A DNA stretch of 24,000 nucleotides from Candidatus Heimdallarchaeota archaeon (GCA_018238155.1 JABCTZ010000019.1:6832-30831); one strand, 5' to 3'; positions 2,825 through 18,964 are shown, numbered from the stretch's first letter. Made by a program: numbers and translations. Notes: generated by a model not told the origin, from the letters alone.

Positions 2825-3562
2825 TTACTCAATTTTACAAACATCTGTTAATCTACAATTCCAGCAAGAAGTTTCGATTAATGGAAATTTCTCTTGGGAA
2901 ATCTCGGAGAGTATTCGTTGATAAGATTCTTGAAAAGATAATAACTCATCTACTTTCAATTCAAAGATTCTCTCAATTCCTGATTTGTAATAATAGCAAC
3001 CAATTTCTACTACATTATACAAGAATTCATCATATTCCATATTTTCAGCCCTAAAGTTGTTTAACAAATTTGCATAAAATACCAGTGCTAGCTTATCATT
3101 TTGATGAGGTTCAGATTTATAGTCAATTATTCTTAATCCATCTTTACTCTTGCACAATTCCACACAATCAATTATTCCTCTCTGCCTTTCTGTCATTAAT
3201 CGTGACTCTGTTTGAACAGGTATCCAGTAATCAGAGTCTTCGAAATATTTTCTCTGTTGATACAACCAATAAAGTAATTTTATTTGATTACTAGCAATTT
3301 CTTTTGGTGGTTCTGGTTCAGTTATTCTATTCCGATATTTTTTATGAAACGTTTCAAAGAATGAGTGTTTGATTATTCCATTCAAATTATCTCCACTATA
3401 ATTACGCAGAACATAGCTAGAAGTGCTCCTTTTTGAATTCATGAAAGCCGTCTTGTAGGGTATTGGATTCAATATTCGATGAATGCGGAATTTCTGAAGG
3501 CACTCAAGATAATACAAATATTCCGTTTTGCTTAAATTTATTTCATAATCAAGAACTACCAT
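2825..3562 (-). CDS. Cas4-like PD-(D/E)xK nuclease with 4-Cys (Fe-S type) signature
   Basis: 245 aa. Motifs: N-terminal Cys (YYLEC21LQKF); GIIKHSFFE; RGIID132CVE ... RIID147YK149 (D...DxK); helix LALVFYANLL; C-terminal C233-x2-C236-x5-C242 (nt 2837-2866). This one N-terminal plus three C-terminal Cys arrangement is typical of the Cas4/DUF83/AddB family. ATG start 6 nt after the upstream gene's stop. Confidence 0.65.
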   Translation of the reverse strand: MVVLDYEINLSKTEYLYYLECLQKFRIHRILNPIPYKTAFMNSKRSTSSYVLRNYSGDNLNGIIKHSFFETFHKKYRNRITEPEPPKEIASNQIKLLYWLYQQRKYFEDSDYWIPVQTESRLMTERQRGIIDCVELCKSKDGLRIIDYKSEPHQNDKLALVFYANLLNNFRAENMEYDEFLYNVVEIGCYYYKSGIERIFELKVDELLSFQESYQRILSEISQEKFPLIETSCWNCRLTDVCKIE

Positions 3563-3568
3563 CCTTAT

Positions 3569-4264
3569 TCACCCCTTATGTTTTAAAGAAAAAACCAAAG
3601 AAGGCTCTTCCATAAGTAAACTTTCAATGTTCTTCAGAATTCCTTTTTTCTTCCCTACTTTACTATGCCAATACATCGAAGCTATTTTTTCAGCTAATTG
3701 CTCTATTGATCGTTTATTAGCTGGAAGAATTCTCTTTTTTTCTCCCTCTAATTTCTCTCTCTTTTCCTCATATTTTGCTAATTTAGAATAATAATTTCTT
3801 GTTGCTTTTTTCAGATCTACCAGTGAACTTTTTGGTATTTTTTTCTGATGTTTCAGACAGTGGAATAACCTCAATTCTTGCAATGATATGCGTTCAAATT
3901 TATTGTTGAAAAAATCTTCAAGGGTAAGACAGCAATTCTTTTTGCCAGTAGCATCTCGAGAGTATATTAGTAATCCACTCTCTTCTAATGCATCACAATA
4001 TTTCTTTGTCTGATCCCAAGACCAAGGAAGTGCGGAACGAATTTCATGCAAACTCTTACTAGATAATTCCCCCATCTCAAATAATTCATTTATCCAATTG
4101 ACGAGGAATGCGTGTGTTCGTATGAATCCTTTTTGAGCTATAGTTTTGATTACTAGGCTCAAATTTCGATGATTGTTCTTCTTCACTAGTTTATAATCAT
4201 GTTCTCGTTGTAGACAAGCAACATTCTCATGCAACAATGCTATACAATCTTTCTCAAAAACCAT
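3569..4264 (-). CDS. hypothetical protein, probable winged-helix DNA-binding domain plus Lys/Glu-rich coiled-coil tail
   Basis: 231-aa ORF. wHTH-like stretch LSSKSLHEIRSALPWSWDQTKKYCDALEESGLLIYSRDATGKK. Sits 13 nt downstream of the Cas1-like gene and 6 nt upstream of the Cas4-like gene. Confidence 0.5.
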   Translation of the reverse strand: MVFEKDCIALLHENVACLQREHDYKLVKKNNHRNLSLVIKTIAQKGFIRTHAFLVNWINELFEMGELSSKSLHEIRSALPWSWDQTKKYCDALEESGLLIYSRDATGKKNCCLTLEDFFNNKFERISLQELRLFHCLKHQKKIPKSSLVDLKKATRNYYSKLAKYEEKREKLEGEKKRILPANKRSIEQLAEKIASMYWHSKVGKKKGILKNIESLLMEEPSLVFSLKHKG

Positions 4265-4277
4265 AATCTTACCACCT

Positions 4278-6296
4278 TCAATTTACCTCATCAATCGATA
4301 AAGGCTTAAAAACAAAATTCTCTGAAAAGAACCGTTGAGAGAAAGTTTGTATTTGTTGCCGTTCCTTTTGAGTTAAAACATCTATCCTCTTTGTTTGTTG
4401 TAGCTTCTTCCAAAGAGTGAGTAGTTTGCTATTTGTTGATTGTTCTCTGCCTGTTAATTCTACAGAATGATTTGCCAGTTTATTCACGAGTTCTTTCTGT
4501 TGCTGAAGATAGCTTTCATACGCTCGTTTAAGGTTCGTGTTTTGTCCCGAGGTTAAACTTATTGTTGTATTAAGAGCACGCAAACCGATTTTTCTAATGA
4601 GTGTGTGAACATCTGAGTTGGGTTCAACACAGTAGTACGGGTCATAGCGTTTCCCTCGATTGACTAGAAAGTCGCCAGGACGTATTTCTTCGTTTCGGAT
4701 TGCTTCATGAATCCAGAGTAAAGCAATGATCTTAGCTTGTTCGATAGTATCCAAGTATAAACCGAAGGAATAACCTCGATGACACCAGCCACGAAAACCA
4801 TCCCAAGCAAGAGAAATGACATTATAGATCTCCTTCTTCAAGTATGAAGTAATGATCAAGTTGACACCATTAATAAGAGAATCATAAGCAGAACGAGCAT
4901 AGAAATAGGCAAAGGGAAGGAACCGTTCAAAACGAACCATACGAGAAACGCTACGAGCGGGAGTCAGGAAACCATATTTCTGTGCTTCACGTTTTAATGG
5001 TTCAACCATCAAACTACTAACACCACCTTCATATCTTTGCCACTGCTTGAAATGAAGACTAGGCACACTCCAATAATTGCGAATAGTGTCTTTCATGTTG
5101 TCTAATGCATCGATAAAATAGATTTTCAGGTCAGCATCAACAAATTTTCGTATCTTCGTTTCAATAAGCGTTACTCGTGTTCGAAGGTTTGCTTGAAAAG
5201 TAGGGATATTGAGAATACTGCTAGCAATAAGGAGCTCATTACCACCAACCTCTTTATCCTGTGGTTCGACACTTTCGATAGTATCAATTGGGGAATAGAG
5301 TCTGATTTTATAGTAGAGTTTGAGACCTGTTGCAGGATCAATCTTGTGGAGTAGATTCTCAAGATAATGATAATCATCCCAGTGCTTTGCATAAATATAT
5401 TTTAACTTTCGAAGAGGAAAATAAGTCAGATCAGCAGAATGGACCAGCTCTTCTGTAGTGGTTTTACTGCCAATAAATAAGTTCTCTTCTTTAGTACGAA
5501 GAGTAAAACTGCCAGGTTTAATGATAGAAATACCATACCAATATTTTTCTAGAGAGTCGAGACTATCCTTATTTTGAGGTGGAAGTGTTTCGCCAGTAAG
5601 ATCATGAAAGCTCTTCTGGAGAATGTCAAAATGACTGTCCCAATAGTACACACGATAATCATCAAAGTGCTCATCATATCCAAATTCCATAGGCGAACCA
5701 CAGTGAGGACAGTAAAAAGTAGTAGAACCAATTCTGATGTTCTGCAAATAAAAACTAAATGCACCAATAACTTGCTTGCAACGGTCAATCGGACAACGAA
5801 AGAATTCACCATCTCTATTCTCTCGAATAAAACGAGCCATCGTTCTACTCTTCAGTTGTCCAGGCACTCGACAGTTAAAGAATTCGCATTTGGGAGCATC
5901 ACGAGGAACTGCTTGAAGAGCTACCCGGAGTTTCAAATGAGCAGCCATAAGCGAAGGATTGCTCTTGAAAGCAAGGTCTAATAATGTGCACCTTTGGATA
6001 GCAGATAACCACTGACAAGCACCACAATTAGATCGGTCATCAGTTGGAGCTTCATCTTCTTGAGGTTGTCCTTCTGAACTATAATATAACCGAACAGATC
6101 GTTCAAGGGATTGCTTGTCAGTATAATACTGAATATTTCCTTGGACAGCAAGGGTACGTAATACTTGACAGATTTGTGAATGGCTCCTGTTTAAATTAAT
6201 AGCAAGATCCTTACTTGAAACAGCTTGTGTGGGATCTACGCGGTCATGCACCAAAGATGCAACTAAAGAGCGAAGATCATTTCTACCTGTTCTCAT
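4278..6296 (-). CDS. multidomain protein: wHTH + Cys-rich (Zn-ribbon-like) region + Cas1-like integrase core
   Basis: Numbering follows the 694-aa track ORF.
- wHTH, about aa 45-85: SSKDLAINLNRSHSQICQVLRTLAVQGNIQYY.
- Cys pairs: C113xxC116, C159x4C164, C190x4C195, C218xxC221.
- The C-terminal half matches the Cas1 pattern: RYE445GG...REAQKYGF, then ARSAYDSLINGVNLIITSYL, then GFRGWCH528RGYSFGLYLD538TIE541.
- The H+10 Asp and H+13 acidic spacing is the same as E. coli Cas1 H208/D218/D221 (recalled from memory).
The start is uncertain. ATG at 6296 overlaps the upstream stop by 14 nt. The track start is TTG 6362 / ATG 6359, which would add a hydrophobic 22-aa leader. Confidence 0.65.
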   Translation of the reverse strand: MRTGRNDLRSLVASLVHDRVDPTQAVSSKDLAINLNRSHSQICQVLRTLAVQGNIQYYTDKQSLERSVRLYYSSEGQPQEDEAPTDDRSNCGACQWLSAIQRCTLLDLAFKSNPSLMAAHLKLRVALQAVPRDAPKCEFFNCRVPGQLKSRTMARFIRENRDGEFFRCPIDRCKQVIGAFSFYLQNIRIGSTTFYCPHCGSPMEFGYDEHFDDYRVYYWDSHFDILQKSFHDLTGETLPPQNKDSLDSLEKYWYGISIIKPGSFTLRTKEENLFIGSKTTTEELVHSADLTYFPLRKLKYIYAKHWDDYHYLENLLHKIDPATGLKLYYKIRLYSPIDTIESVEPQDKEVGGNELLIASSILNIPTFQANLRTRVTLIETKIRKFVDADLKIYFIDALDNMKDTIRNYWSVPSLHFKQWQRYEGGVSSLMVEPLKREAQKYGFLTPARSVSRMVRFERFLPFAYFYARSAYDSLINGVNLIITSYLKKEIYNVISLAWDGFRGWCHRGYSFGLYLDTIEQAKIIALLWIHEAIRNEEIRPGDFLVNRGKRYDPYYCVEPNSDVHTLIRKIGLRALNTTISLTSGQNTNLKRAYESYLQQQKELVNKLANHSVELTGREQSTNSKLLTLWKKLQQTKRIDVLTQKERQQIQTFSQRFFSENFVFKPLSIDEVN

Positions 6297-7074
6297 GTAA
6301 CCTCTTCTCCAGTATAAAATCATCAACCATAAGACTATGGGGACCGATAGAAGATTCATCAAGCCAAGGAGGAAGCTCCTGGTAATCGGTAAAGACTGAG
6401 AGAATAATCTCTATCAATTCTTTATCATTCAAATCGTTAGCTCGAGTAATTTCCACTTGATTGATCCGAGAAACAACCTCTTCAGAGAATAGTTGTAAGG
6501 AATTATCATCATAATCATCCGATTCTTCTCTCTTCGAATCCTTCGCATAAGCAATCGTTCGTTTAATCTTTTTGACCCACTCAAACCATTCCTGATACTC
6601 AGCAATTGATTTATCAACGGTTCGTTCCTTCAGTTGAAGGAAGGTCAGAAATTTAGGAACATTCTCAGCAGAAGGAAGAAAACCGAAGGAATGATCGTCA
6701 CTACAACCATCTTCACTATCCAACTTATTAGCTAACCAAGCATTAAAACCGAAAAAACGAAACAAAGCACTAGAAAGAAAAGGATGGTCAAGCTGAAGAT
6801 CAACAACACGACGACGACCTGAACGATAATACGTAATAAGACCAAGATTTGCCAGTGACTTGAGACTAGAACCAATAGCATTAGGGGATCGGTCTAGAAA
6901 CCGACAAAGAAAACCAACAATATTGACAAACTTGCATGTGAAATTCAAGATAAACAATAACTGAAGTGTAAGCAAAACTTCCTCCATAACAGGAGTGAAT
7001 TTAACATTCATATTCAACTCAGCAAAACGATACTCGTCTACCTCTGTTAAGACAAGATTATTCTGAAACTTCAT
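6283..7074 (-). CDS. hypothetical wHTH (MarR-like) protein with acidic C-terminal half
   Basis: wHTH-like IVGFLCRFLDRSPNAIGSSLKSLANLGLITYYRSGRRRVV. ATG at 7074 is preceded by GGAGA 8 nt upstream. The track's longer version starts at TTG 7155. The stop overlaps the start of the Cas1-like gene. Confidence 0.5.
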   Translation of the reverse strand: MKFQNNLVLTEVDEYRFAELNMNVKFTPVMEEVLLTLQLLFILNFTCKFVNIVGFLCRFLDRSPNAIGSSLKSLANLGLITYYRSGRRRVVDLQLDHPFLSSALFRFFGFNAWLANKLDSEDGCSDDHSFGFLPSAENVPKFLTFLQLKERTVDKSIAEYQEWFEWVKKIKRTIAYAKDSKREESDDYDDNSLQLFSEEVVSRINQVEITRANDLNDKELIEIILSVFTDYQELPPWLDESSIGPHSLMVDDFILEKRLHENR

Positions 7075-7156
7075 AAGATTTTTCTCCAACAGAACTCTCC
7101 GACAAAATTGCTTATAAACCTCTAACTCACAAAAAATACCAGAATGCCTTCCCAAT

Positions 7157-7230
7157 ACTCACAAATAATTCAGAAAACCAATGCACTTCTAGGTAAATTT
7201 ACGCAAATTTCCTTCACTCACAAAAAATTC
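7157..7230. repeat. two copies of a 15-nt direct repeat upstream of the wHTH/Cas1-like operon
   Basis: actcacaaataattc (7157-7171) and actcacaaaaaattc (7216-7230). They match at 14 of 15 positions and lie 59 nt apart, in the operon's 5' flank. Confidence 0.3.
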
Positions 7231-7404
7231 TGTAAACTCCTTTAGTCCGCGCTATTCTTACTTCTAAGAATGCCAATTTTCCTCTTCTTATCCCTTCTCA
7301 TGACTAAATAAACCCCTCTTGTACATTAGCGAAAGTTAAACTCTATTCCTATTAACAAAGTACTCAAAGAAGAAAAAAATTGTTGAAATTTAAATTTGCT
7401 TTTT

Positions 7405-7527
7405 TCAAGATTCCAATTCATTCATTCGTTTCTCAAATGCATCAAGTCTTCTCCAAACTTCTTTTATTTGTTCATCAAGCTTTTGCTCTAGTTTGTCAAT
7501 TCTTTTGTTTACGTACATGCTACTCAT
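7405..7527 (-). CDS. possible 40-aa coiled-coil micro-protein
   Basis: Hand translation: MSSMYVNKRIDKLEQKLDEQIKEVWRRLDAFEKRMNELES*. ATG is preceded by GGAAGAGGA. Below the track's size cutoff. No family evidence. Confidence 0.25.
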   Translation of the reverse strand: MSSMYVNKRIDKLEQKLDEQIKEVWRRLDAFEKRMNELES

Positions 7528-7564
7528 TATTATCCTCTTCCTATATTGATTTTCTAATAGTTAC

Positions 7565-7637
7565 TCGCGTTGGAACGTTAAGCAAGACCACTGTAAGTGG
7601 GCTTGTAGTGACCGCGAATCTGCGACTAGCAGAGCTA
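7565..7637. ncRNA. possible structured RNA or terminator element (GC-enriched stem-loops in an AT-rich spacer)
   Basis: - Outer stem: 7565-7569 (tcgcg) pairs with 7613-7617 (cgcga).
- Inner hairpin: 7582-7591 pairs with 7597-7606. It has 9 pairs (one is G-T) plus one A/G mismatch, and loop tgtaa.
- Second hairpin: tagc-aga-gcta at 7627-7637.
Strand unknown. Confidence 0.2.
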
Positions 7638-7688
7638 TTAGGAATTTCTTTCTTCTATGAACACTACTTAAAAAATAGATTAGTATAT

Positions 7689-9263
7689 TTAATGATTTTC
7701 TTGTTTTACTAGGTTACTAAAAGTTTTTAAAAAATACCTTACAACTCCATTCCTAATTAGATTTTTTTCTATTTCTGTTCCAAAATGTTCTTCAATTTGA
7801 GAAAGCAATTTCTTATCATCTGAATCAATTCGAATATAACTTTCATAAAAAATCATTTTTTTTGCAAAGTATTTTAGTTGGGCATTTGGTCTCAAATCAA
7901 GGAAAACTGGTGCTGCTCTAAACCTTCTATATTGTATTCGACGTCCATGATAAAGTAAAAATTCCATCAAAGATTTTTTCTCCTCTGATAAAATTTTTTC
8001 AAGTACTTTTATTGATACTGCACTTTTTCCTGCTTCTATATATTGAACAGACTTAGTACTAATCCCTAGTTTCTGTGCAAACTCAAATTGTGTTGTTTTT
8101 TTTCTATATCCCTTTAGTAATTGTCCTAATCCAACTATTTGTAAATCTGATATTAAACTAAAATCAAAATAGCCGTTTGGTATAGTGTCTTTCTTGAAAT
8201 CTTGAAATTGATAAGAAATTTTGCTTTTTATCTCTCTTCCTTCTTTTAACTTTAAGAATTGCACCCTCTTTTCAGGATGACAACTGTACATTTCACTCTT
8301 GTATATTTGATTATACTTTCTAGGAATGTATATTTGAAATGTATTGTCTGGTCTTTCAGTTAATCTTGACTTGATAGATAATGATACTAAGAATCTAGTG
8401 AACTCATTTACATAAAATTTACTTGCACTTGTGAATGTAATACTGCCACTAGCATAGCTCCCATCAGCATCCATTACACCAGACCAATAATGTGAACGAA
8501 ATGGTTGTTCTTGGAAAAGTAACGGCTCACGTAATTTTTGATATTTCCTTCCACCAATAGGTTGATTTGTAAGAAAAGAAAATAATCGTGCTACCCAGAG
8601 ATTGGTAATAATGAGTTTCGGGCAATTCTCAGTTTGAAGTTGAATTCTCCCTGTTTGCTTGAATAATCGTTCGAACTGTTCCTTTAACTGTCGAATGTTT
8701 TCAATGGAATAATCAACAATATTGAGAACATATTTAGTGATATTCCCATCACCATTGACCATACCACAAAGATAAGCAAGCTCAGTAGTTAAGCTAGTAG
8801 GCATCGCAAAGGTTTCACCTCGAGAGGATTCAAGTATTCGTTCATGGAAATTAAGTTCAAAGTGATCCGGAAAGCAACGATAGAAGGGCAGGGGAACAGC
8901 ACCTCGCTCGAGATACTTTCGAAGGATATCACGCCATTCGAGGATCTTACGATTATCAGATCGGTAAAAATAATCACGCAATTTTTCAGCGACAAGAAGG
9001 TCTTGATTACTTACAAGTTCCTTTTCCTCCTCAGTAAGCTGAACATAGGGTAAACGAGCAAGGATACGGTCAGAATGTTTTTCCCGGACAAAATCCGCCC
9101 TGCGAACAAGGATAGGAAAAAGGTTGAGAATATTGGTACCTTCAAGAATGATTTCTTTTCCTCGATTGCTTTCTAGTAACTCATTGGCGTTTATCCACTG
9201 ATTGACCGGCTTAACCTCTGCATCAAAATAGATCGAATCATTAAGCCAATTGAGCACTGCCAA
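7689..9263 (-). CDS. free-standing double-motif LAGLIDADG endonuclease-like protein fused to a C-terminal XRE-type HTH
   Basis: 524 aa.
- Motif 1: LAYLCGMVNGDGN (nt 8742-8780).
- Motif 2: HYWSGVMDADGSY (nt 8454-8492).
- XRE-like HTH: LGQLLKGYRKKTTQFEFAQKLGISTKSVQYIEAGKSAVSIKVLEKIL (nt about 7992-8138).
- The N-terminal 160 aa are unassigned.
TTG start; there is no in-frame ATG before the domains. Confidence 0.75.
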   Translation of the reverse strand: MAVLNWLNDSIYFDAEVKPVNQWINANELLESNRGKEIILEGTNILNLFPILVRRADFVREKHSDRILARLPYVQLTEEEKELVSNQDLLVAEKLRDYFYRSDNRKILEWRDILRKYLERGAVPLPFYRCFPDHFELNFHERILESSRGETFAMPTSLTTELAYLCGMVNGDGNITKYVLNIVDYSIENIRQLKEQFERLFKQTGRIQLQTENCPKLIITNLWVARLFSFLTNQPIGGRKYQKLREPLLFQEQPFRSHYWSGVMDADGSYASGSITFTSASKFYVNEFTRFLVSLSIKSRLTERPDNTFQIYIPRKYNQIYKSEMYSCHPEKRVQFLKLKEGREIKSKISYQFQDFKKDTIPNGYFDFSLISDLQIVGLGQLLKGYRKKTTQFEFAQKLGISTKSVQYIEAGKSAVSIKVLEKILSEEKKSLMEFLLYHGRRIQYRRFRAAPVFLDLRPNAQLKYFAKKMIFYESYIRIDSDDKKLLSQIEEHFGTEIEKNLIRNGVVRYFLKTFSNLVKQENH

Positions 9264-9341: not shown

Positions 9342-9656
9342 CTATTTCTTTATTATTTTACGCTCTCTATAATTTGATTCAGCAGTAAAATTCTCATCAT
9401 CAGGATAGTATGAAGTTCTTACCCAAATAATCTTAGTTTTAAAATCAGGTTCACATGGAATATGTACAAATCGACTATTTTCTAATTCCCCCCACAACAA
9501 GTACCGTCCATCTTTTGTATCCTCAATAACATCCCATTGTCGAACAATTTCTTCTATTTCATCTGGTGGTATACTTCGCTCTCTCCAACGAAGCTCTCCA
9601 TGTCCTCTCTGAAAGCGAATAATAAATTCTTTGTTTTTTTCTTTAAAGTGGTTCAT
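9342..9656 (-). CDS. DUF4258-like small protein (putative toxin-type)
   Basis: 104 aa. The sequence GHGELRWRERSIPPDEIEEIV...GRYLLWGE...IIWVRTSYYP fits the DUF4258 pattern: H...R.I, a helix, and a beta-rich C-terminus ending in V.T.Y. Confidence 0.55.
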   Translation of the reverse strand: MNHFKEKNKEFIIRFQRGHGELRWRERSIPPDEIEEIVRQWDVIEDTKDGRYLLWGELENSRFVHIPCEPDFKTKIIWVRTSYYPDDENFTAESNYRERKIIKK

Positions 9657-9700
9657 GGAACTAGAGGGGGAAATATATAAATCTTGTGCATCTATACACT

Positions 9701-9710
9701 ACACATGTGT
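9701..9710. promoter_or_regulatory. perfect 10-bp palindrome in a divergent intergenic region (candidate operator)
   Basis: ACACATGTGT is its own reverse complement. It lies between divergent starts at 9656 (-) and 9784 (+). A TATA-like aaatatataaat lies at 9671-9682. Confidence 0.2.
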
Positions 9711-9783
9711 TTATCCTCTGGATCTATTATTTGCTGAAATAGTGTTTCCATTTCCTAAATCTCATTTATTGAATAACTGAACC

Positions 9784-10539
9784 GTGAGAAAAATGAAACA
9801 AAGTAATCCCTATTCTAAAGAAGAGAAATTTAGAGAACTAATAAAAGAAGCTTACAGAAAAGTCTTCATCACGGAAAAACAAAAAACCGCACTTTTAGCA
9901 AAATATAATCGAAAGTATGATGGAGACGCTCTGTCCATGCAAGATAGAAATGCTCTGCGAATGCTAAGAAAAACTATAATACAGTATCGAACTTCTGTGT
10001 CTGAGTCTGCAATAGCTGCTCTAAAATTTGAAAGTGTTCTTGAATTACTTTCACTTGTGGATAAAAGCTCTGGTATTTATTGTCATGTTTGTAAAGTGGG
10101 AATATTAGTATCACGAACCGTGAGTTCTTGGATTGTGGGTAAGGATTATGAATTAATTTTAGAACAGAAACCTGCGAAAGTATGTAGTAACAATACTTGT
10201 AAAAGTACTTCATTTAGCTTAGCAGTAGAGAAATATGAGGATGAGCTAATCAATGAAGTTGAAAAGCAATTACGATCGATTAGAATTACAAACACCGAAA
10301 AATTAGATCAAAAGAAATGTCCGCAGTGCCGTTCAGAAACGTTAGAAGCAAACCATACTGGTGATGTATACAAATATCATCAGGGATTATATCATATCAA
10401 GATCAGGGATGTTCCACTAAAAGCATATTGCAACATTTGTCACTATCAAGAAGTAGGAGAAAATATAATAATAGAATTGGAAAAATTAGAAACCCTCTTA
10501 GATACTGAAACACTCGAATTGTTGAAATTGGATGGCTAA
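9784..10539 (+). CDS. protein with helical N-terminus and two tandem YgiT/MqsA-type zinc-finger modules
   Basis: 251 aa.
- Module 1: C90HVC93 ... C134SNNTC139.
- Module 2: C179PQC182 ... YKYHQGLYHIKIRDVPLKAYC216NIC219.
Each has a CxxC, then a beta-hairpin, then a second Cys pair, as in the MqsA N-terminal domain. GTG start in the track; ATG 3 codons later. Confidence 0.55.
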   Translation: MRKMKQSNPYSKEEKFRELIKEAYRKVFITEKQKTALLAKYNRKYDGDALSMQDRNALRMLRKTIIQYRTSVSESAIAALKFESVLELLSLVDKSSGIYCHVCKVGILVSRTVSSWIVGKDYELILEQKPAKVCSNNTCKSTSFSLAVEKYEDELINEVEKQLRSIRITNTEKLDQKKCPQCRSETLEANHTGDVYKYHQGLYHIKIRDVPLKAYCNICHYQEVGENIIIELEKLETLLDTETLELLKLDG

Positions 10540-10890: not shown

Positions 10891-11658
10891 ATGAATGTCT
10901 CTCGAAACTTTAAGCGAATAAAAATAACCGCAAAAACAGCAATAGCAAAACCCGGGAACGGGCAAATTGGGGGAGGAAATACCAAGAACTTATTACTAGT
11001 TCATAACGGACGAGGGTATGGGCGAGAAGGAAAGAGATACCTAGTGAAGGGATTAAGAGGATTGCTAAATCATTCAATGATGGAGCTTGCAAAACAAAAA
11101 GGAATAGAAGTATGTCACTCATCGGACAAAAAAGAAACACAAACAGGAGAAAAATTGCTACCAGACGCATTTCATCCAAACGGCTCGTGCTATCCAGAAG
11201 AGGAGTGCATAAGACACAGATTAATGGGTTCAATGAAAAAACAATCAGTGCTGCGATTTGAACCAGTAGTGATAGTATCGGATAATATAACAGGGGAGTT
11301 CGAAGACGCACAGAAAATACACATAGCAACGGACAAAAGAAATGCGCTAGTGCAAGGAACAAAAAGAAGCATACAAGATTTCGGAGAAAGATACATAGCA
11401 GGAGAATTTACCTATTCGATAGAATTATTGAAAGAAATCTCTCTAGAAGAAATGGGATTCTTACTGAAAAGTATTCTCTACATGCCAGAATTGCGGTGGG
11501 GTGCATCAGGAAATAATGGAGCGGGAAAATTAGAATTAGAAGAAGTAAATCTACAAGAAGTAATGCGCACAAGAACTGTCAAGAAAGGAAAAGTGTCCGA
11601 AAAAGAAAATGAAAAAAATCTTTGGAAACAAATGGAGGAGGGACTTAAAGCTTGGTAA
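10891..11658 (+). CDS. RAMP superfamily protein, Cas7 (Csm3/Cmr4)-like
   Basis: 255 aa.
- YLVKGLRGLLNHS (nt 11038-11067), compare the IPGSSLKGxLR motif.
- CIRHRLMGS (nt 11206-11232), compare C.vC.lFG.
- IHIATDKRNALVQGT...ERYIAGEFTYSIELL, compare the idr.tg.a ... E.i..G..F block.
- Gly-rich loop WGASGNNGAGKLEL (nt 11497-11529). Confidence 0.65.
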   Translation: MNVSRNFKRIKITAKTAIAKPGNGQIGGGNTKNLLLVHNGRGYGREGKRYLVKGLRGLLNHSMMELAKQKGIEVCHSSDKKETQTGEKLLPDAFHPNGSCYPEEECIRHRLMGSMKKQSVLRFEPVVIVSDNITGEFEDAQKIHIATDKRNALVQGTKRSIQDFGERYIAGEFTYSIELLKEISLEEMGFLLKSILYMPELRWGASGNNGAGKLELEEVNLQEVMRTRTVKKGKVSEKENEKNLWKQMEEGLKAW

Positions 11659-12635
11659 TAAGGGAAATATATACACTAGAAGGAGAATTGCTGTCACCAA
11701 TTATTGTTTCTTCATCATTGATAAAGAAAGGAAGAATTTGGATTAGAATAGTAAGGGAGTTAGGAACTGAAGAAAAACCACAAAAGAGCTTCACTGCGAA
11801 ACTAATAAAGGGGGAACGAAAAGCACCAGACCATGTGAACGCATACAGAGGATTTGTGAGAATAACTACAGTTGATTCAAACACATCTCGAGCGAAGAAA
11901 AACATTGATCTCTATCTTAACAAAGATTTCCTTGGAAGACGTGTAAACGAAGGATTTGGAAAAGTCAAGTGGTTGAATTATAAAATAGAAAATTACGTAA
12001 GAAATGCAACTGAAAAAAAACAAAAGAAATTCAGAATACGAAAAGGACTAGGACCAAATTATCCAAAAGAATTGCAAAGATTGCTTAGAGCTCTAATGTT
12101 ACATGATTTTGTGGAAACAGAAAAACATCCAAGTAAGATATTCAAAGAAATTTCAATTAAGGATGAGGAAATAAGAGAAGCTTGCTTAAAACATCATAAT
12201 GTAGGATACTGCAAGAATATACTACTCCCACTGGTCAGGTATTATGACCATTTAGCTGCATACATGAACAGAAAAAGCGTACACATAAGAAACTGCAGAT
12301 ATGATTATGAGAATGGAAAAATAGATTTTGAAAAATTAGCTAATGACATAGAAGAAAGACAACAATCTGCCTATAAATTATATAATTTCATCTATTACTC
12401 AAAAGAATTAAGTAGAACAGTGGAAGCAATGAAATTTGGAAAAACATCTCTGCGAGATCATTTGTTGTTAATGGCTAATCTAGCTATACATGGCTACTGC
12501 AATAGGTGGTTAATAATGGAAAATGGAAAAATTGAACTCGAAAAGAAAATCTCATCATCGGTAACAAGAAAGGATGAACTTGAATGTGCTAAAGATGTTG
12601 AGATGCATCTGTTATCTAGTATGAGCAATGCTTAA
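11652..12635 (+). CDS. two-part protein: short RAMP-like N-terminus with Gly-rich loop, plus a helical C-terminus with possible HD-type motifs
   Basis: 327 aa. TTG start overlaps the upstream stop by 7 nt, and there is no in-frame ATG for 148 codons.
- FLGRRVNEGFGKVKW (nt 11928-11972) resembles the terminal G-rich loop of Cas5/Cas6-type RAMPs.
- ALMLHDFVETEKH (HD at nt 12102-12107), KHHN and RYYDHLAAYMNRK (nt 12240-12275) loosely resemble Cas10/Cas3-type HD motifs.
The functional call is weak. Confidence 0.4.
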   Translation: MVIREIYTLEGELLSPIIVSSSLIKKGRIWIRIVRELGTEEKPQKSFTAKLIKGERKAPDHVNAYRGFVRITTVDSNTSRAKKNIDLYLNKDFLGRRVNEGFGKVKWLNYKIENYVRNATEKKQKKFRIRKGLGPNYPKELQRLLRALMLHDFVETEKHPSKIFKEISIKDEEIREACLKHHNVGYCKNILLPLVRYYDHLAAYMNRKSVHIRNCRYDYENGKIDFEKLANDIEERQQSAYKLYNFIYYSKELSRTVEAMKFGKTSLRDHLLLMANLAIHGYCNRWLIMENGKIELEKKISSSVTRKDELECAKDVEMHLLSSMSNA

Positions 12636-12941: not shown

Positions 12942-14258
12942 TTAAAATATCTTAATTTCTACTATGTGTTCTATTGGATATTTATCTGTGTAGTTTCCCG
13001 GGTCGATAATATATTCTACTCCTGGGAACCATACTAATTCTGACCAGTAATTCCCTTGATCGGTTTCTTCATCAAACCATTTTGTAAATCCTACAAAATC
13101 AGAACAATTACCTTCTACCCTTGCTTGTGAGTGGATTTCTGTGATGTTATTATAGTTATTGTCTATGAAATTATTATTCCATATTGTTGCATTTACTGCT
13201 TCCGTTTCTATTCCGTATTGTTCATTGTGCTCTAATATGTTGAAATTGATAGCTGTAATATTTGAACATCGTAAAGACATTCCTATAGTATTATCAAAGC
13301 AACTATTATTTGTTATAGTACAGAGATCATTCATTAACATTGCAATACCATATTCTCTATTAGATTTGAAAGCATTGCTTTGACAACAGCTGTTTTTGCT
13401 TCTAACCATCAACAACCCAAAATTGCTTCCCGTACAATTGTTTCCAATTATTGTACAGTTGTTTGAATAATATACACCTATCCCCCGAAAAGAATTATTA
13501 GTTATATTATTGTTTAGTAACCTAATATTTACGCAATCCAAAATACCGATACCATAGTTCCCATTTTCTATGGTATTATTTTCCACAATTACATTTGAAG
13601 CTGTAAGAATGTCGATATCCTCTGAACCAGTATTTGTGAAATAATTATTCTGAACAGTTACATTATCTACCTGACTTAAGGTTATTCCGTAATCACAACT
13701 TTGGAAAATATTTCCTTCTACTCTCGAATTATTACTCATATATAATTCAACCCCTCCATCATTATAATTTCTGTAAAATCTATTGCTTGTAATATTTACA
13801 GTTCCAAAACGTACCTCAATTCCTTGCCGGTAATTTCTATCGAAAGAATTATTTGTAATTAGGCATTTCTCGAGATAACTGATAGAGATTCCAATATCTC
13901 CTCCAATTAAATTATTTTTAATAACTATAGTTCCATCTGCAGTGATATTTGATAGTTTTATTCCACATGACAGCCTACAATTTTGAATGATAAAATGCTT
14001 TGTTACTCCACTAATTTTGATACCATATAGGACTCCTTGCAAGGTATATCCCTCTATAATGTATGGTTCTTCCTTTGTGCCTTTCCCTGGAAAGTTATAT
14101 TTCCAGTAGAAATCTGAATCTCTCTTAATCTCTATTATCTCGATATCTTTTCTTAGATTAATCCATCTACCCAAGAAAATTCCTGAAATTGTTACAGAAC
14201 AAACTAATACAACAATTAGAATTACTTTTACTGATTTTTTTAAGTCTCTGAATCCCAC
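12942..14258 (-). CDS. membrane-anchored right-handed parallel beta-helix (PbH1/NosD-like) surface protein, paralog 1
   Basis: 438 aa with a GTG start. Has an N-terminal TM anchor and FPGKGTKEEPYIIEGY (typical PbH1 entry). Repeated N-rich, roughly 22-aa turns (NNxIxxNxxGI). About 16 N-x-S/T sequons by my count. Conserved tail IDPGNYTDKYPIE. Confidence 0.8.
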   Translation of the reverse strand: MGFRDLKKSVKVILIVVLVCSVTISGIFLGRWINLRKDIEIIEIKRDSDFYWKYNFPGKGTKEEPYIIEGYTLQGVLYGIKISGVTKHFIIQNCRLSCGIKLSNITADGTIVIKNNLIGGDIGISISYLEKCLITNNSFDRNYRQGIEVRFGTVNITSNRFYRNYNDGGVELYMSNNSRVEGNIFQSCDYGITLSQVDNVTVQNNYFTNTGSEDIDILTASNVIVENNTIENGNYGIGILDCVNIRLLNNNITNNSFRGIGVYYSNNCTIIGNNCTGSNFGLLMVRSKNSCCQSNAFKSNREYGIAMLMNDLCTITNNSCFDNTIGMSLRCSNITAINFNILEHNEQYGIETEAVNATIWNNNFIDNNYNNITEIHSQARVEGNCSDFVGFTKWFDEETDQGNYWSELVWFPGVEYIIDPGNYTDKYPIEHIVEIKIF

Positions 14259-14507
14259 TCTGAATTCCTCTTCGATTGTTTGGTAATTGTAGTATTTATA
14301 CCTTTCAGTTTTGAAAAATAATGATTGTATAAATCATTTGACATATTTCTTTATGAAAACAGTTTTCTTTACATTATATTTTGATCATTACTATTTTGAT
14401 TTAAGAAATCTTCTTATTTTTGTAATCGATTGTTTATGTACCTTTTTTCGGGGGGATGATAATTTGAATAAAAGGTTTTCACTGTTTTTTGTTTTCTTTT
14501 TCTTGCT

Positions 14508-15821
14508 TTATATTTTGATTGTCACTGGTTCTTCTAGGGGATAGTTATCTGTGTAATTTCCTGGATCGATAATATATTCCATTCCTGAGAACCATACTAT
14601 ATCCGACCAGTAATTCCCTTGATCGTTTTCTTCATCAAACCATTGTGGGTATCCAACATAATCAGTACAGTTTCCCGCTACTTTAGCTTGTGCTTGTATT
14701 GATGGTATGTTATTGTAGTTATTATCTATAAAATTATTATTCCAGATAGTTGTGTTTACTCCTTGTGTCACCATTCCATATTCCAAATTATGTTCGAATA
14801 CATTGAAGCTAATTCTTGGTATCCTTGAACAATATAGTTCCATCCCAAGTGTATTGTTATAGTATGAATTATTATTTATCTCTGTAGAGTAACTTAACCA
14901 AACATAAAGTCCACTAACATTATTCGAAATAAGATTATTGTTGGAAAAGAGGCTATCTGAAATTCCATAAGCAGAAATTCCGTAATAAACATTTTTAGAA
15001 CAATTATTTTCCTTAATTAAGCCATTGTTTGTGTAACTAATTAATAACCCAGAACCATTCTCTGTTAAATTATTTCCCACAATATTGACATTTTGACTAT
15101 AAACAATAGCAACACCTAAACCACAATTTATTACTGTGTTATTATCAAATTGGATATTCTTTATATATTGCATTTGTGCACCCCATCTTGTACAGTTTAT
15201 GAGATAATTTTTCTCTATAGATATTAGTTCAGAATCCAAAATTGTAAATCCATCTTCGCAAGAATCGAAGGTATTTTTCTTTATGCTTGTATTATAATTA
15301 TCTAGTACATGTATTCCATCTCCTTGATTTTTGAGAAAAGTATTTGAAGTAATTTCCAAGCTACCAGTAGATGTTGCTTCTATTCCTCTGCCATTTTTGA
15401 AGAATTTATTACCACTTATTAGGCAATTGCTACTTATTCTTATAATAACCCCATAGTCATTACTTTGTATAGTATTGTTTACTATTTTTGCAATACCATT
15501 TGATAATCCTCTTAAATCAATACCCTTATTGGAGTTTCGTAAAACACAATTTTGAATGACAAAATGTTTTGTTATATCATAGATTTTGATATTGTGAAAC
15601 CTATTACCAGATAATTCATAGCCATCAATAATAAACGGATCTTCTTCTGTTCCTTTTCCAGGAAAGTGATATTTTCGAGAAAAATCCTTATCCTCATATA
15701 TTTCTATCACATTTATTGGTCGAAACCATACACCTAAGAAAATTGCAGTTCCAGTTATTGTTACAACTAATCCAATTATTACTATTGTAAGAACTTTGTT
15801 GTTTATTTTCTTCAATTCCAA
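14508..15821 (-). CDS. membrane-anchored parallel beta-helix surface protein, paralog 2
   Basis: 437 aa with a TTG start. Same architecture as paralog 1. Tail: QGNYWSDIVWFSGMEYIIDPGNYTDNYPLEEPVTIKI. Confidence 0.8.
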   Translation of the reverse strand: MELKKINNKVLTIVIIGLVVTITGTAIFLGVWFRPINVIEIYEDKDFSRKYHFPGKGTEEDPFIIDGYELSGNRFHNIKIYDITKHFVIQNCVLRNSNKGIDLRGLSNGIAKIVNNTIQSNDYGVIIRISSNCLISGNKFFKNGRGIEATSTGSLEITSNTFLKNQGDGIHVLDNYNTSIKKNTFDSCEDGFTILDSELISIEKNYLINCTRWGAQMQYIKNIQFDNNTVINCGLGVAIVYSQNVNIVGNNLTENGSGLLISYTNNGLIKENNCSKNVYYGISAYGISDSLFSNNNLISNNVSGLYVWLSYSTEINNNSYYNNTLGMELYCSRIPRISFNVFEHNLEYGMVTQGVNTTIWNNNFIDNNYNNIPSIQAQAKVAGNCTDYVGYPQWFDEENDQGNYWSDIVWFSGMEYIIDPGNYTDNYPLEEPVTIKI

Positions 15822-16360
15822 TTTCTCACCATTTTGTTATATGTAGCACTATAAATACCATTTCAGATTTTACATTGAGTAATTCTAATGTTTTTTTTGT
15901 TTCTTATAGGTTAAGTGAATTTCTGTAAATTCTCTCTACATTTCTAGGATTTGTTTTAAGATGCCTTTTTCCTTTCTTTTCCAACTGAATTTTCTTAATC
16001 ATTAATTCATTCTAGTCTTAGTGAAAGGGAAATTTGAGTGCCTGCTAGAAAATATTATATTAAGCAATTAATTACTCACATTAAAGATTTTTCTTTTGAC
16101 AGTGATCTTGATTCAATATTTGCTACTTCTCGTGCTCTTTAATCCTTAGAGCGGTATAGAGAGGACATTCCTGAGTTGCTTTCTCTTTCAATGAAGCTTT
16201 TGAAGGATTTTTATCTCCAAGAGAATGAAATTACTTTTCCAGTCAATCTTAGAATGACTGATGAAAGATAAATAGCTATTTCTGAAGTTTACTGGAATGC
16301 TCTCCATGCCATACATTTTCACGATTGATCTGTTCCCTCTCATATTGCTTTTTTCTTGCT

Positions 16361-17707
16361 TTAGAGATTGATTGTCACTGGTTCTTCTAGTGGGTAGCTA
16401 TCAGTATAATTTCCTGGGTCGATAGTATACTCCACTCCTGTATACCATACTAACTCCGACCAGTAATTTCCCCTTCCCATTACTTCATTATGCCACTTTG
16501 TGTGTTCTTCATAATATGTTCCATCAAATGAGCAATTTCCATTACTTCTTGCTTGTGAATGTATTGTTGTAATGTTGATGTAATTATTGTCTATGAAATT
16601 ATTATTATAAATGGTAGTATTTACTCCTTGAGTTACTATACCATATTCTAAATTGCGTTGAATAATATTACAATTAATTTGAGTAATATTTGAACAAAAT
16701 AATTCCATTCCTAGACCATTATCAACAAAGCTATTATTGTTTATTGAAGAGATATCACTTGCCCACATTGATATTCCACTTTTATTATTTCCATTAAAGA
16801 AATTGTTACAACAATTACTATTGGTTAACCAATATATCCTGATACCAAAATCACTATTTCCTGATCCATTATTTCCCGTAATTAAGCATTTGTTTATGGT
16901 TTCTAAATAAAAACCGTTACCTCTATTGTCCACTGAAGTATTATTTACTAAGTCTATATTTTGACTTTGACATATTCCGAATCCTAAACTACAATTTGTT
17001 GCTGAATTATTACCTATAATTATATTCATTACTTCTTCTGCATAAAATCCTAATATGCAGTTTGTAAAATTGTTTCTTTTTGTTAGAATATTTTCCGAAC
17101 GATAAATTACTAATCCACTATTAAAAGAGTCAAAGGTATTGTCTTCTATTCTTGTATTATTGTTATCCGAAAAATTCATCCCTTCAATCCAAGCAATGTG
17201 GTCATACTTGTTATTGATAAGGATATTTGATTGTATTGTATAACTACCTGTTCCCGCTTCTATTGCTTGATGGTTATTGATGAAAGTGTTATTACTGATG
17301 ATACAATTATTATATCCTCTAATAATAATTCCAAAATCATTATCTCTTATAGTGTTGCTTAGTATTTGTGCAACTCCATAAGTTAAGTTAACTAAATCCA
17401 TACCTTTGCTGGATTTTTCCAAAATACAATTTTGAATGATGAAGTATTTTGTTATGCCTACAATTCTGATGTTATGATGAGAATTTCCTGATAACTCGTA
17501 ACCGTCAATAATATAGGGGTCATCCTCTGTTCCACTGCCTGGAAAATGATATTTTTGTGAGAAGTCCTTATCATCAAAAATTTCTATTTGTTCTATTGTT
17601 CTAAACCGCCAGCCAAAGAAAATCGCTGTCCCAATTGTTGACACGACTATCGCTATGATTATTACTGCTTGAACTTCACTACTTAGTTTTCTAAATCTCA
17701 CTTTCAA
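16361..17707 (-). CDS. membrane-anchored parallel beta-helix surface protein, paralog 3
   Basis: 448 aa with a TTG start. Same architecture as paralogs 1 and 2. Tail: RGNYWSELVWYTGVEYTIDPGNYTDSYPLEEPVTINL. Confidence 0.8.
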   Translation of the reverse strand: MKVRFRKLSSEVQAVIIIAIVVSTIGTAIFFGWRFRTIEQIEIFDDKDFSQKYHFPGSGTEDDPYIIDGYELSGNSHHNIRIVGITKYFIIQNCILEKSSKGMDLVNLTYGVAQILSNTIRDNDFGIIIRGYNNCIISNNTFINNHQAIEAGTGSYTIQSNILINNKYDHIAWIEGMNFSDNNNTRIEDNTFDSFNSGLVIYRSENILTKRNNFTNCILGFYAEEVMNIIIGNNSATNCSLGFGICQSQNIDLVNNTSVDNRGNGFYLETINKCLITGNNGSGNSDFGIRIYWLTNSNCCNNFFNGNNKSGISMWASDISSINNNSFVDNGLGMELFCSNITQINCNIIQRNLEYGIVTQGVNTTIYNNNFIDNNYINITTIHSQARSNGNCSFDGTYYEEHTKWHNEVMGRGNYWSELVWYTGVEYTIDPGNYTDSYPLEEPVTINL

Positions 17708-17817
17708 ATCCCTAATACATTATCTTTTACTATATACTAAATATCTTTTCCATCTTTTCTAAAGAATATATTCATGCTTTTTTTGTTTTCTTCTTCATTA
17801 TTACTGTTATTTGCTAC

Positions 17818-18285
17818 TCAACCAGATAGACAAAAACTTGTCGTTGGAACTTGAGGATAACCCATTGAAATGTGGCAAACATCTATACGGTAAACAGGAT
17901 CTCTCATAAAAGTCACAAATCGATTTGCTGTTGGGATTGTTGTTGAATATATCCTTAGTTCTCCTTCAACACAAACAATGATTTCCTCTCTCCAATCACC
18001 AAAAACATCTGCCCAAGCAATACCATCATTTGGTAAGGATGCTATTTTCTGATCCGAAATCAAATATTGTCTTATCGTGTATTAATTCTCTTTGCAAATC
18101 TGCATCCCAATAAGCAGCAAATAATGTATAACCAAAGTCGTATTCTTGTTCTGTTGCGATGACTGAACCATTTGCTGCATGTATTCTTCGGTAAGGCGCT
18201 TTTTTATCTCCCGAATATCCTTCCATGCCAGGGTACCGAGAGTCAAAATCTGACACTAATCCTTGACCATGAATATGATTTAGCA
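17818..18285 (-). pseudogene. 5'-truncated and frameshifted remnant of an FG-GAP/beta-propeller gene (rhamnogalacturonan-lyase-family-11-like C-terminal region)
   Basis: Track ORFs 18026..18256 and 17818..18063 are consecutive pieces of one reading frame, offset by 1 nt.
- Piece 1: HIHGQGLVSDFDSRYPGMEGY.
- Piece 2: AWADVFGDWREEIIVCVEGELRIYSTT...DPVYRIDVCHISMGYPQVP.
These match the GDWREE ... LRIYTT ... Y(N/P)QP pattern of that family. The frame break is at the A4 run near 18045. Only about 150 codons remain. Confidence 0.65.
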
Positions 18286-18320
18286 GGTGTTTTCTCTTCT
18301 TTTTTTTTGAATAGTTATTT

Positions 18321-18851: not shown

Positions 18852-18964
18852 TTTAGTGAAAAATCTAAAAAGGGATAGACTAAATTATAAGTTAGTTAAT
18901 TTCATTTCTACTAAAAAATGGGATTATTATAAGATCATACTTCCTAGACTGAAGAGGCGAATAA

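Follow-up and report, generated by a model that had tools for sequence, protein, structure and literature searches.

The question raised by the locus considered here is what a Cas1-like and a Cas4-like protein do together in a short archaeal operon that stands apart from any CRISPR array. The operon lies in a stretch of 24,000 nt from Candidatus Heimdallarchaeota archaeon (GCA_018238155.1, JABCTZ010000019.1:6832-30831), referred to below as the window; its DNA is AT-rich (33.3% G+C overall) and archaeal in character, with genes for a family-B DNA polymerase (PolB) and several paralogous membrane-anchored beta-helix proteins. A sequence-only reading of this DNA had described four closely spaced minus-strand genes, for a winged helix-turn-helix (wHTH) protein, a Cas1-like protein, a second wHTH protein, and a Cas4-like protein, and had taken their raised G+C content (GC) as a sign of horizontal acquisition or mosaicism. 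Comparison with related loci (designated by L numbers) makes it highly probable that the four genes are the core of a conserved array-less module of Heimdall-group Asgard archaea, previously undescribed as far as could be found; neither the module nor the family was found described in a literature search.

With equally strong confidence, the order of the module can be given as a LAGLIDADG–HTH gene, a leader of ~270 nt, wHTHa, a gene for a wHTH–Cys4–Zn-ribbon–Cas1 fusion, wHTHb, and a gene for a Cas4-like iron-sulfur (Fe-S) nuclease. The positions of these features in the window, together with those of one frequent neighbor, are as follows:

7689..9263, minus strand: LAGLIDADG–HTH gene, 524 aa; conserved upstream partner of the operon
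7300..7329, minus strand: Box A, CTAATGTACAAGAGGGGTTTATTTAGTCAT; invariant non-coding box
7119..7230, minus strand: three direct repeats, R1-R3; presumed operators and promoter of the operon
6283..7074, minus strand: wHTHa gene, 263 aa; ArsR/SmtB-like winged helix, then a helical C-terminal domain
4278..6296, minus strand: Cas1-like gene, 672 aa; wHTH, two 4-Cys clusters, Cas1 fold
3569..4264, minus strand: wHTHb gene, 231 aa; winged-helix-like core and coiled-coil-like C-terminal half
2825..3562, minus strand: gene for the Cas4-like PD-(D/E)xK nuclease, 245 aa; cysteines C23, C233, C236, C242
10891..12635, plus strand: pair of genes for a Cas7/Csm3-like RAMP and a 327-aa protein; frequent divergent neighbor, outside the core module

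The four open reading frames (ORFs) occupy 2825-3562, 3569-4264, 4278-6296, and 6283-7155, as the sequence-only reading had placed them, and their start and stop codons give exactly the junctions it had listed, an overlap of 14 nt and gaps of 13 nt and 6 nt; a Shine-Dalgarno-like GGAG/GGTG motif precedes the start of each gene. Its start of the upstream wHTH gene at 7155 is probably wrong, because the homologues, seven of which were aligned, all begin at the position of the ATG at 7074 and because 7075-7155 is conserved non-coding leader DNA with repeats and a TATA-like box. According to this alignment, the ATG at 7074 is most likely the start of wHTHa, giving 263 aa. The wHTH segments noticed in three of the four products were recovered by profile, Foldseek, and hhalign comparisons in wHTHa, the N-terminus of the Cas1-like protein, and the 231-aa protein.

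The same order of the four operon genes was found in about 20 independent loci of the core family, down to 35-40% protein identity, and the junctions are tight or overlapping at all loci; in a distant branch (24% identity), the LAGLIDADG, wHTHa, Cas1-like, and wHTHb genes are kept, and the Cas4 gene is missing. All named hosts are metagenome-assembled genomes of Heimdallarchaeota, Gerdarchaeota, or 'Promethearchaeati' (Asgard). A scan of species-representative genomes gave 10 loci in about six genomes, with two to three divergent copies in three of them. In the comparison of synteny among relatives, which the sequence-only reading had proposed, the four genes of the core family keep together, and their distribution is patchy and rare.

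No CRISPR array was detected in the window or within ±10 kb of 20 loci in a search that combined TRF, a repeat scan, and a k-mer array detector and that did detect an E. coli control array, and no Cas2-like gene appears in the gene table of any locus. Terminal inverted repeats with target-site duplications were not found at 12 loci, where only chance-level flank matches of 10-13 nt occurred, in a search that an element with more distant ends could escape; the repeat scan of the window also gave nothing relevant to transposon ends. PolB is encoded within 10 kb only in the window and in L017, beside ordinary-looking cellular genes, and is absent from the other loci. Because it has no array, no Cas2, no terminal inverted repeats with target-site duplications, and no PolB of its own, the module is neither a CRISPR adaptation module nor a casposon as defined (PMC4046053). 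A viral origin was considered and rejected, with no relative in IMG/VR contigs and no viral structural matches.

The label Cas1-like holds for the 672-aa protein, even though the curated models miss it; the support comes from structural comparison, from a profile match, and from a link to Pfam by way of a relative. Searches of Pfam, NCBIfam, PADLOC, PHROGs, and the sequences and profiles of the PDB gave no Cas1 match for it, Pfam Cas_Cas1 (PF01867) matched none of 13 family members even at E ≤ 10, and the members are labelled 'hypothetical protein' in the source databases. An AlphaFold model was made from 13 homologues, with a predicted local distance difference test score (pLDDT) of 68.9 overall and higher in the Cas1 region. 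When this model was compared with the PDB by Foldseek, the eight best matches were all Cas1 or casposase (among them 6opm, 4n06, 7kft, 4xtk, 2yzs, and 8d3l), with E = 1.4e-7 to 3.9e-5, a probability of 1.00, 377-434 aligned columns, and target-normalised TM-scores of 0.41-0.51, and they recover the two-domain Cas1 fold of an N-terminal beta-sandwich and a C-terminal alpha-helical catalytic domain. An exhaustive profile search collected 31 relatives of the family; the distant relative P0041, found by the family profile at E = 7e-5, itself passes Pfam Cas_Cas1 with 34.7 bits against a cut-off of 22.3. At the same time, profile A6, which was broadened with distant relatives, matches the M. mazei casposase 6opm at E = 9.8e-6, in an alignment that pairs the motifs NGV/NYGY, RGWCH/GFLH, and LDxxE/YDLQE. 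The structural matches, the transitive link through P0041, and the match of A6 to a casposase together place the 672-aa protein as a very divergent member of the Cas1/casposase superfamily in which the catalytic E-H-D-E set is conserved.

In the 13 core-family sequences, E423, H506, and D516 are invariant and E519 is ≥90% conserved, and H506 and D516 remain invariant in all 23 sequences when the distant relatives are included. In a weak hhalign alignment (E = 0.032), these four residues pair with E141, H208, D218, and D221 of E. coli Cas1, which are experimentally defined catalytic residues (PMC4046053); a direct hhalign comparison of the family with E. coli Cas1 paired the correct motif and was not significant. 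The Cas1 fold spans residues ~250-672. Upstream of it lie a wHTH at ~10-75, supported by a profile match to wHTH structures at E = 1.6e-6 and by Foldseek wHTH hits, and two conserved 4-Cys clusters, namely C91/C94/C103/C137 and a zinc ribbon of the form CPxxRC…YCPHCG. A 1199-aa protein beside a distant LAGLIDADG copy (L116) was examined as a possible fused Cas1-like protein, which was not supported.

The last gene of the operon encodes a PD-(D/E)xK nuclease with cysteines of the Cas4 type (C…CxxCx5C), in agreement with its earlier designation as Cas4-like. Pfam PDDEXK_1 matches it at E = 3.2e-9 and matches all eight members tested, and D132 and the D147-Y-K149 motif are invariant among the homologues. 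The cysteines C23 and C233-x2-C236-x5-C242 (CxxCx5C) are present in seven of eight homologues, the one without them being that of L003; a single N-terminal Cys with a C-terminal CxxCx5C is the spacing that we take to be typical of the Fe-S cysteines of Cas4. Curated Cas4 models were not passed (TIGR00372, 16.2 bits against a cut-off of 65, E = 0.007), the PADLOC Cas4 match to the 245-aa protein was weak (E = 0.0019), PF01930 matched two of eight members (E = 0.11), and the family profile had no match in the PDB. The Cas4-like gene of L003 (7195-7962), which is without the C-terminal cysteine motif and has an N-terminal part readable only outside the called ORF, may be decaying.

As for the two small proteins, profile A3 of wHTHa matches SmtB (ArsR/SmtB) at E = 8.5e-5, and wHTHa stays under the NCBIfam cut-off (14.8 bits against 55); it is a winged-helix protein resembling ArsR/SmtB, with a predicted DNA-binding function. 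The wHTHb protein has a winged-helix-like core at residues ~60-120, which hhalign aligns to the wHTH region of wHTHa at E = 7e-5 with a probability of 63%; its family is kept in all loci, and it matches no curated family and no PDB sequence. The proposal of the sequence-only reading that the wHTH proteins act as specificity or regulatory subunits is plausible, and the candidate sites are three repeats in the leader, the core of which varies between cassettes.

This leader, which lies between the LAGLIDADG gene and wHTHa and has a fixed length (~270 nt), was found conserved at 17 loci. Box A lies ~250 nt upstream of the operon start codon, and each locus has one copy, without exception on the strand of the operon; 16 of the 17 aligned loci share an identical core, TACAAGAGGG, L003 having one substitution, and in most loci the box extends to ACAAGAGGGGT, though the proteins of these loci are only 30-45% identical. 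The three repeats have the consensus GGAnTTTTTT-NNN-AGT (R1 at 7211-7230, R2 at 7151-7172, and R3 at 7119-7140) and stand 59 and 32 nt apart, with the spacing and the T-tract kept in 17 loci. Three occurrences of TTTGTGAGT were found in the window, all of them in the leader, a number reached in 0 of 100 shuffles. The 3-nt core of the repeats varies by locus (GTG, ACC, ACG, GGG) and is mostly uniform within one locus, and a TATA-like TTTATAA at 7112-7118 abuts R3, ~40 nt before the wHTHa start codon. The repeats are presumed operator sites for the wHTH proteins of the operon, and Box A is presumed to be where a component of invariant specificity acts. The far end of the module has neither Box A nor the repeat core.

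Other interpretations of the leader were tried and rejected. As a structured RNA, it gave an RNAalifold consensus of -0.23 kcal/mol and no Rfam match at E ≤ 1, and its hairpins, judged by eye, are out of register between loci. As a small ORF with its start at an ATG within Box A, the leader reads open in L004; in the window group, ATA or early stops stand there (by eye). With Box A taken as a homing target with empty sites, no module-free sites were recognisable in metagenomes: a Box A scan gave 83 metagenome and 6 viral matches, only four of the metagenome matches carry the module, and the recurrent extended match in metagenomes is a GC-rich, coding-like bacterial sequence. Two further features lie in this intergenic DNA of the window. 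The DNA from the LAGLIDADG stop codon to Box A includes a GC-rich non-coding segment of ~95 nt (7552-7648), which has 96% identity to its counterpart in L012 and is recognisable with changed arm sequences in L114; loci with 5-47 nt from this stop codon to Box A lack the segment. Its plus strand gives a multi-hairpin, cloverleaf-like fold (-28.2 kcal/mol, z = -2.07). ARAGORN does not call the segment a tRNA, Rfam has no match for it, and it may represent either a small RNA or an inserted element. A 40-codon ORF at 7404-7526 on the minus strand encodes a coiled-coil-like peptide, MSSMYVNKRIDKLEQKLDEQIKEVWRRLDAFEKRMNELES.

In the product of the gene upstream of the leader, a conserved N-terminal domain is followed by a double LAGLIDADG core, an Xre-type HTH, and a C-terminal domain (Pfam LAGLIDADG_3, E = 3.4e-8; HTH_3, E = 4e-6). 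The top Foldseek matches of its AlphaFold model (pLDDT 93.9) are archaeal intein and intron homing endonucleases (the TliVMA intein, PI-PfuI, I-Tsp061I, and I-DmoI; E = 5e-10 to 1e-6), with a target-normalised TM-score of ~0.7 against I-DmoI, and WhiA is a lower match (E = 4e-5). Among 50 sequences, the aspartates of the two motifs, D172 and D267, do not vary. The gene is free-standing and not inside an intron or intein, and no conserved flanking homing target was found beside it. It lies upstream of the operon, with products of 520-550 aa, in most loci whose contig extends that far; in L009, the closest relative, no copy was found in the 934 nt upstream of the operon. A second LAGLIDADG–HTH copy in L012 (3658-5431), 61% identical and without an operon, adjoins a 5' fragment of 27 codons duplicated from the RAMP gene, an arrangement suggesting that the LAGLIDADG gene is able to duplicate or move on its own.

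The raised GC was the observation from which the sequence-only reading had argued for acquisition. Its five hand counts are exact (28, 26, 20, 17, and 21 per 60 nt), and the profile of GC and tetranucleotides, of the kind that it had proposed to compute across the contig, is not flat in the window. The segment 4278-7074 deviates most: its GC is 0.387 against a mean of 0.326 (sd 0.019, maximum 0.356) for equal-sized windows elsewhere, and its tetranucleotide distance of 27.9 is the largest in the window, the others being 12-21. The description of the operon as GC-rich is therefore right for the Cas1-like and wHTHa genes and wrong for the Cas4-like and 231-aa genes, whose joint GC of 0.322 is that of the background. 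The GC of the first, second, and third codon positions (GC1, GC2, GC3) is raised in the segment, GC3 being 0.31-0.33 in the GC-raised genes against 0.21-0.28 elsewhere, and the AT skew of the plus strand switches sign over 4278-7074. The 5' third of the LAGLIDADG gene is GC-richer as well, as had been suspected by eye (0.404 at 8660-9263 against 0.304 at 7689-8659).

The same pattern, with wHTHa, the Cas1-like gene, and the LAGLIDADG 5' third raised and with wHTHb and the Cas4-like gene near background, recurs in L001, L003, L004, L006, L009, and L012, that is, in the orthologous modules of nearly all other AT-rich genomes, differing cassette alleles included; L012, a syntenic relative with a divergent cassette allele, shows it gene by gene. 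Moreover, the GC boundary at ~4270 does not coincide with the recombination breakpoint at ~3565. Because the pattern recurs across AT-rich loci and its boundary misses the breakpoint, the raised GC of the two genes is a gene-family trait and no mark of recent transfer into this genome. Since GC1 and GC2 are up as much as GC3, an effect of amino-acid composition is indicated; the pattern may stem from amino-acid constraint, from a compositional history common to a circulating gene pool, or from GC-biased gene conversion at a recombination hotspot. What survives of the earlier proposal is mosaicism or exchange, on independent evidence, and the step from high GC to acquisition fails because of the family-wide pattern.

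This independent evidence comes in part from the nucleotide identity between the window and L012, which is distributed along the locus as follows (window coordinates):

9700-8700: 0.82-0.88, one bin 0.70
8700-7500: 0.69-0.77
7500-3500, leader to wHTHb: 0.57-0.76, mostly 0.6-0.7
3500-2900, Cas4-like gene: 0.86-0.93

At the protein level, identity to L012 is 88% for the Cas4-like and 65% for the Cas1-like protein, and identity to L009 is 90% and 94%, respectively. The reverse discordance is seen between L013 and L016, with 63% for the LAGLIDADG and 92% for the Cas1-like protein. In L010 (2000-6600), the leader and the four genes have a GC of 0.47-0.57 (GC3 ~0.6) between flanks of 0.25-0.42, the downstream DNA having 0.25-0.34 and the LAGLIDADG gene ~0.40. 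Because of the identity breakpoints against L012, the discordance between L013 and L016, and the composition of L010, the cassette is taken to be exchanged by recombination between conserved neighbors, and the comparison with L012 shows the locus to be of mosaic ancestry. Horizontal exchange is also supported by the differing flanks of the loci and by the two to three divergent copies in some genomes. A 7.3-kb contig, L024 (GCA_018238125.1, JABCTY010000050.1), is identical to the left part of the window and ends inside the 3' end of the Cas1-like gene; this assembly break was possibly caused by population heterogeneity in the cassette.

The flanking genes vary from locus to locus. Two subfamilies have type I restriction-modification genes on the same strand at a distance of 70-90 nt downstream, near CHAT-TPR proteins, and a methyltransferase, toxin-antitoxin-like pairs, TnpB, and the Cas7/Csm3-like RAMP are among the other neighbors. 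In the window, the RAMP (255 aa, 10891-11658, plus strand) overlaps an uncharacterised protein of 327 aa (11652-12635, plus strand); it matches Csm3 of PADLOC at 2.7e-5 and, in PDB profile searches, Cas7 at 5.7e-4 and Csm3 at 1.2e-3. At least the solo RAMP, if not the whole pair, neighbors the LAGLIDADG gene, in a divergent upstream position, in the window and in L004, L012, L014, L019, and probably L115. An invariant LMLHDFVxTEKH motif is present in the 327-aa protein; an assignment of this protein (orf327) as an HD nuclease was rejected, with one member at E = 0.14 only and no PDB match. No other type III genes and no array were found near the RAMP pair, which may be accessory and lies outside the core module.

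At 9342-10539, a divergent toxin-antitoxin-like pair is inserted between the RAMP genes and the LAGLIDADG gene; its members are a DUF4258 protein of 104 aa on the minus strand and a YokU-like zinc-ribbon protein of 251 aa on the plus strand. L012 has the pair as well, and the zinc-ribbon protein is also found in L003. At 12942-17707 on the minus strand, there are three tandem paralogous genes for proteins of 437-448 aa with an N-terminal transmembrane helix, the DNA of which is 69-78% identical in register; judged by eye from their NN-rich repeats, these proteins are probably right-handed beta-helices. The window (16361-21727) and L017 (4765-9335) have an orf176–PolB–cytidylyltransferase block in common, and in L017 the module is directly beside this block, with an orientation relative to PolB opposite to that in the window and with the beta-helix and RAMP genes missing; the PolB-adjacent region appears to be a variable island.

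Among the known systems, casposases (Cas1-solo group 2) resemble the module in having a Cas1-fold enzyme without Cas2 or a CRISPR array, 6opm being the best structural and profile match, in the conserved catalytic tetrad, and in the kind of companions, small HTH and zinc-binding proteins and nucleases. The DNA-binding parts of the Cas1-like protein (wHTH and two Cys4 clusters) are N-terminal, unlike in family 2 casposases, where the HTH is C-terminal. One report mentions an HTH domain in family 2 casposases (PMC8464041), and one casposon has been reported with a Cas4-like domain (PMC4046053). The module differs from casposons in its lack of a PolB, of terminal inverted repeats, and of target-site duplications, in a protein that Pfam Cas_Cas1 misses, in its fixed LAGLIDADG–HTH gene partner, and in a conserved one-sided leader. 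The CRISPR adaptation module (Cas1–Cas2–Cas4, for example of type I-C, 8d3l) likewise combines a Cas1-family enzyme and a Cas4-type Fe-S nuclease in one operon; the present module differs in having no Cas2, no array within ±10 kb (20 loci), and two wHTH proteins flanking Cas1, and its three leader repeats, unlike the repeats of CRISPR arrays, are fixed in number and spacing. A stand-alone Cas1 homologue with no CRISPR or casposon link is also known as Cas1-solo group 1 of Methanomicrobiales, for which an incomplete catalytic set and an absence of horizontal transfer were reported (PMC4046053), whereas the module keeps the catalytic residues, shows exchange, and lives in Heimdallarchaeota.

The upstream gene product is like the homing endonucleases I-DmoI and PI-PfuI in its double LAGLIDADG fold with both motif aspartates and like WhiA in its combination of a LAGLIDADG core with a C-terminal HTH, and it differs from all three in an extra conserved N-terminal domain of ~150 aa. 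WhiA has lost the catalytic residues that the LAGLIDADG family of the module keeps. In restriction-modification operons with a controller (C) protein, a small HTH gene heads the nuclease operon, repeated operators lie at the promoter, and the whole moves horizontally. The module offers an analogy, with an HTH gene at the operon head, operator-like repeats at the promoter, and horizontal movement; its wHTH proteins are unrelated to C-proteins, and its arrangement of three repeats plus an invariant distal box, to which binding is predicted, is a different one.

From these likenesses a mechanism can be sketched, which as a whole is tentative and to which we give somewhat less than an even chance. 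The operon would be transcribed from the TATA-like box ~40 nt upstream of wHTHa, and the wHTH proteins would autoregulate it at the three adjacent repeats, as controller proteins do for restriction-modification operons. Having no Cas2, the Cas1-like enzyme would rely for its placement on DNA on its wHTH and zinc modules and on its translationally coupled wHTH partners. Like casposases and Cas1, it would cut or join DNA via 3'-OH transesterification, and trimming of the DNA ends would fall to the Cas4-like nuclease. The LAGLIDADG enzyme would cut or bind DNA sequence-specifically at a long site, which may be Box A; the breaks made by LAGLIDADG enzymes have 3' overhangs ending in 3'-OH, a kind of substrate used by Cas1-type integrases. 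A fuller proposal is rather doubtful, namely an independent, array-less Cas1–Cas4 partnership in which a LAGLIDADG endonuclease would work together with a casposase-like integrase and a Cas4 nuclease, without Cas2, PolB, or arrays. It has two versions: either a defence system would capture or destroy invading DNA, or the LAGLIDADG enzyme would cut at Box A and the cassette (leader repeats, wHTHa, Cas1-like gene, wHTHb) would be replaced by gene conversion.

The best overall reading of the module is, in our opinion, that of a Cas1–Cas4 DNA-processing module of the defence-island or selfish kind, a reading about as likely to be right as to be wrong. As to its biological role, defence is nearly an even prospect, and self-mobilisation is rather unlikely. 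Several observations weigh against this reading. The mechanism is based on homology and genomic context, the hhalign pairing of E423 with E. coli E141 is statistically weak (E = 0.032), and the confidence of the Cas1-like model is moderate (pLDDT 68.9), with the metal-binding region unmodelled. The association with defence islands is suggestive only, several loci lying among housekeeping genes (RNA polymerase subunits, PCNA/GINS, ribosomal protein L10, metabolic genes), and for the GC jump of L010 an assembly chimera is an alternative to the recent transfer of a cassette out of a GC-richer lineage. Because the LAGLIDADG family is larger than the Cas1-like family (91 against 12 clusters in the same kind of search) and some of its copies occur without a detectable Cas1-like partner, the LAGLIDADG gene may be an independent neighbor or regulator and not a subunit.

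Among the alternatives, a self-mobilising element, either a casposon-like transposon without PolB or a 'cassette-homing' element that would combine the Cas1-like integrase, a LAGLIDADG break, and Cas4-like end processing, would account for the casposase as the best structural and profile match, for the differing flanks and the two to three copies in some genomes, and for the compositionally foreign leader and four genes of L010. The identity to L012, which is lowest beside Box A and rises outward on the LAGLIDADG side like a gene-conversion tract, and the duplicated gene fragment adjoining the second LAGLIDADG copy of L012 would fit it too. Such an element is nevertheless unlikely, since terminal inverted repeats as well as target-site duplications are lacking at 12 loci, the leader repeats and Box A stand at one end only, and the module has no PolB; within-genome copies are 40-85% identical and so give no sign of recent transposition, module-free Box A sites were not recognisable in metagenomes, and the family is absent from viral contigs. 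The module most probably spreads and diversifies by homologous cassette exchange and not by transposition. A recent acquisition of the four genes by an AT-rich genome, with the raised GC as an un-ameliorated donor signature, is improbable: the GC and tetranucleotide deviation of 4278-7074 is indeed the strongest in the window, GC3 is raised, and the module is horizontally mobile in general, but only two of the four genes deviate in GC, GC1 and GC2 are raised as much as GC3, the GC boundary is off the recombination boundary, the locus is syntenic in the relatives L009 and L012, and the pattern is the same in six loci (L001, L003, L004, L006, L009, L012) with hosts of similar GC and different alleles. 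This reading is largely refuted by the cross-locus GC pattern.

The remaining two alternatives take the module as a remnant or as ordinary cellular equipment. That Cas1-like, Cas4-like, and Cas7/Csm3-like proteins are encoded within 9 kb, with a weak Csx19-like match for the DUF4258 protein nearby, could recall a decayed CRISPR-Cas locus, in which Cas1, Cas4, and a type III-like RAMP would be left after loss of the array, Cas2, and effectors. This is very improbable in view of module genes that are intact and strongly conserved over >20 loci with invariant catalytic residues, of the lack of an array or Cas2 at every locus, and of fusions, wHTH partners, leader, and LAGLIDADG gene that form a specific, stable architecture, unlike decay. 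A housekeeping module of Heimdallarchaeia for DNA repair or regulation, acting for example in branched-DNA processing and without mobile-element conflict, also has a low probability. It would agree with the position of some loci among replication and transcription genes, with the family-B DNA polymerase within 10 kb in the window and L017, and with the reported activity of E. coli Cas1 on branched DNA; it agrees poorly with the patchy, rare distribution (10 loci in ~6 genomes in the species-representative scan) and with multiple divergent copies, variable positions, swapped cassettes, and frequent defence-gene neighbors.

In practical terms, a local rise of GC in an AT-rich genome can be a conserved family trait and should not by itself be taken as evidence of recent transfer. 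Cas1 is the signature enzyme of CRISPR memory formation, and outside CRISPR it is, to our knowledge, known only from casposons and an inactivated 'solo' group. If the reading of this locus as a Cas1–Cas4 DNA-processing module is true, the module would represent a third stand-alone Cas1 lineage, with intact catalytic residues and invisible to annotation models, which would widen the known uses of Cas1-type integrases, and it would mean that Cas1 and Cas4 can partner outside array-based immunity. It would also bear on the casposon-to-CRISPR scenario, that is, on how the adaptation module arose from casposon-like ancestors. The module is a compact candidate DNA-integration or defence system for biochemistry and is relevant to Asgard biology.

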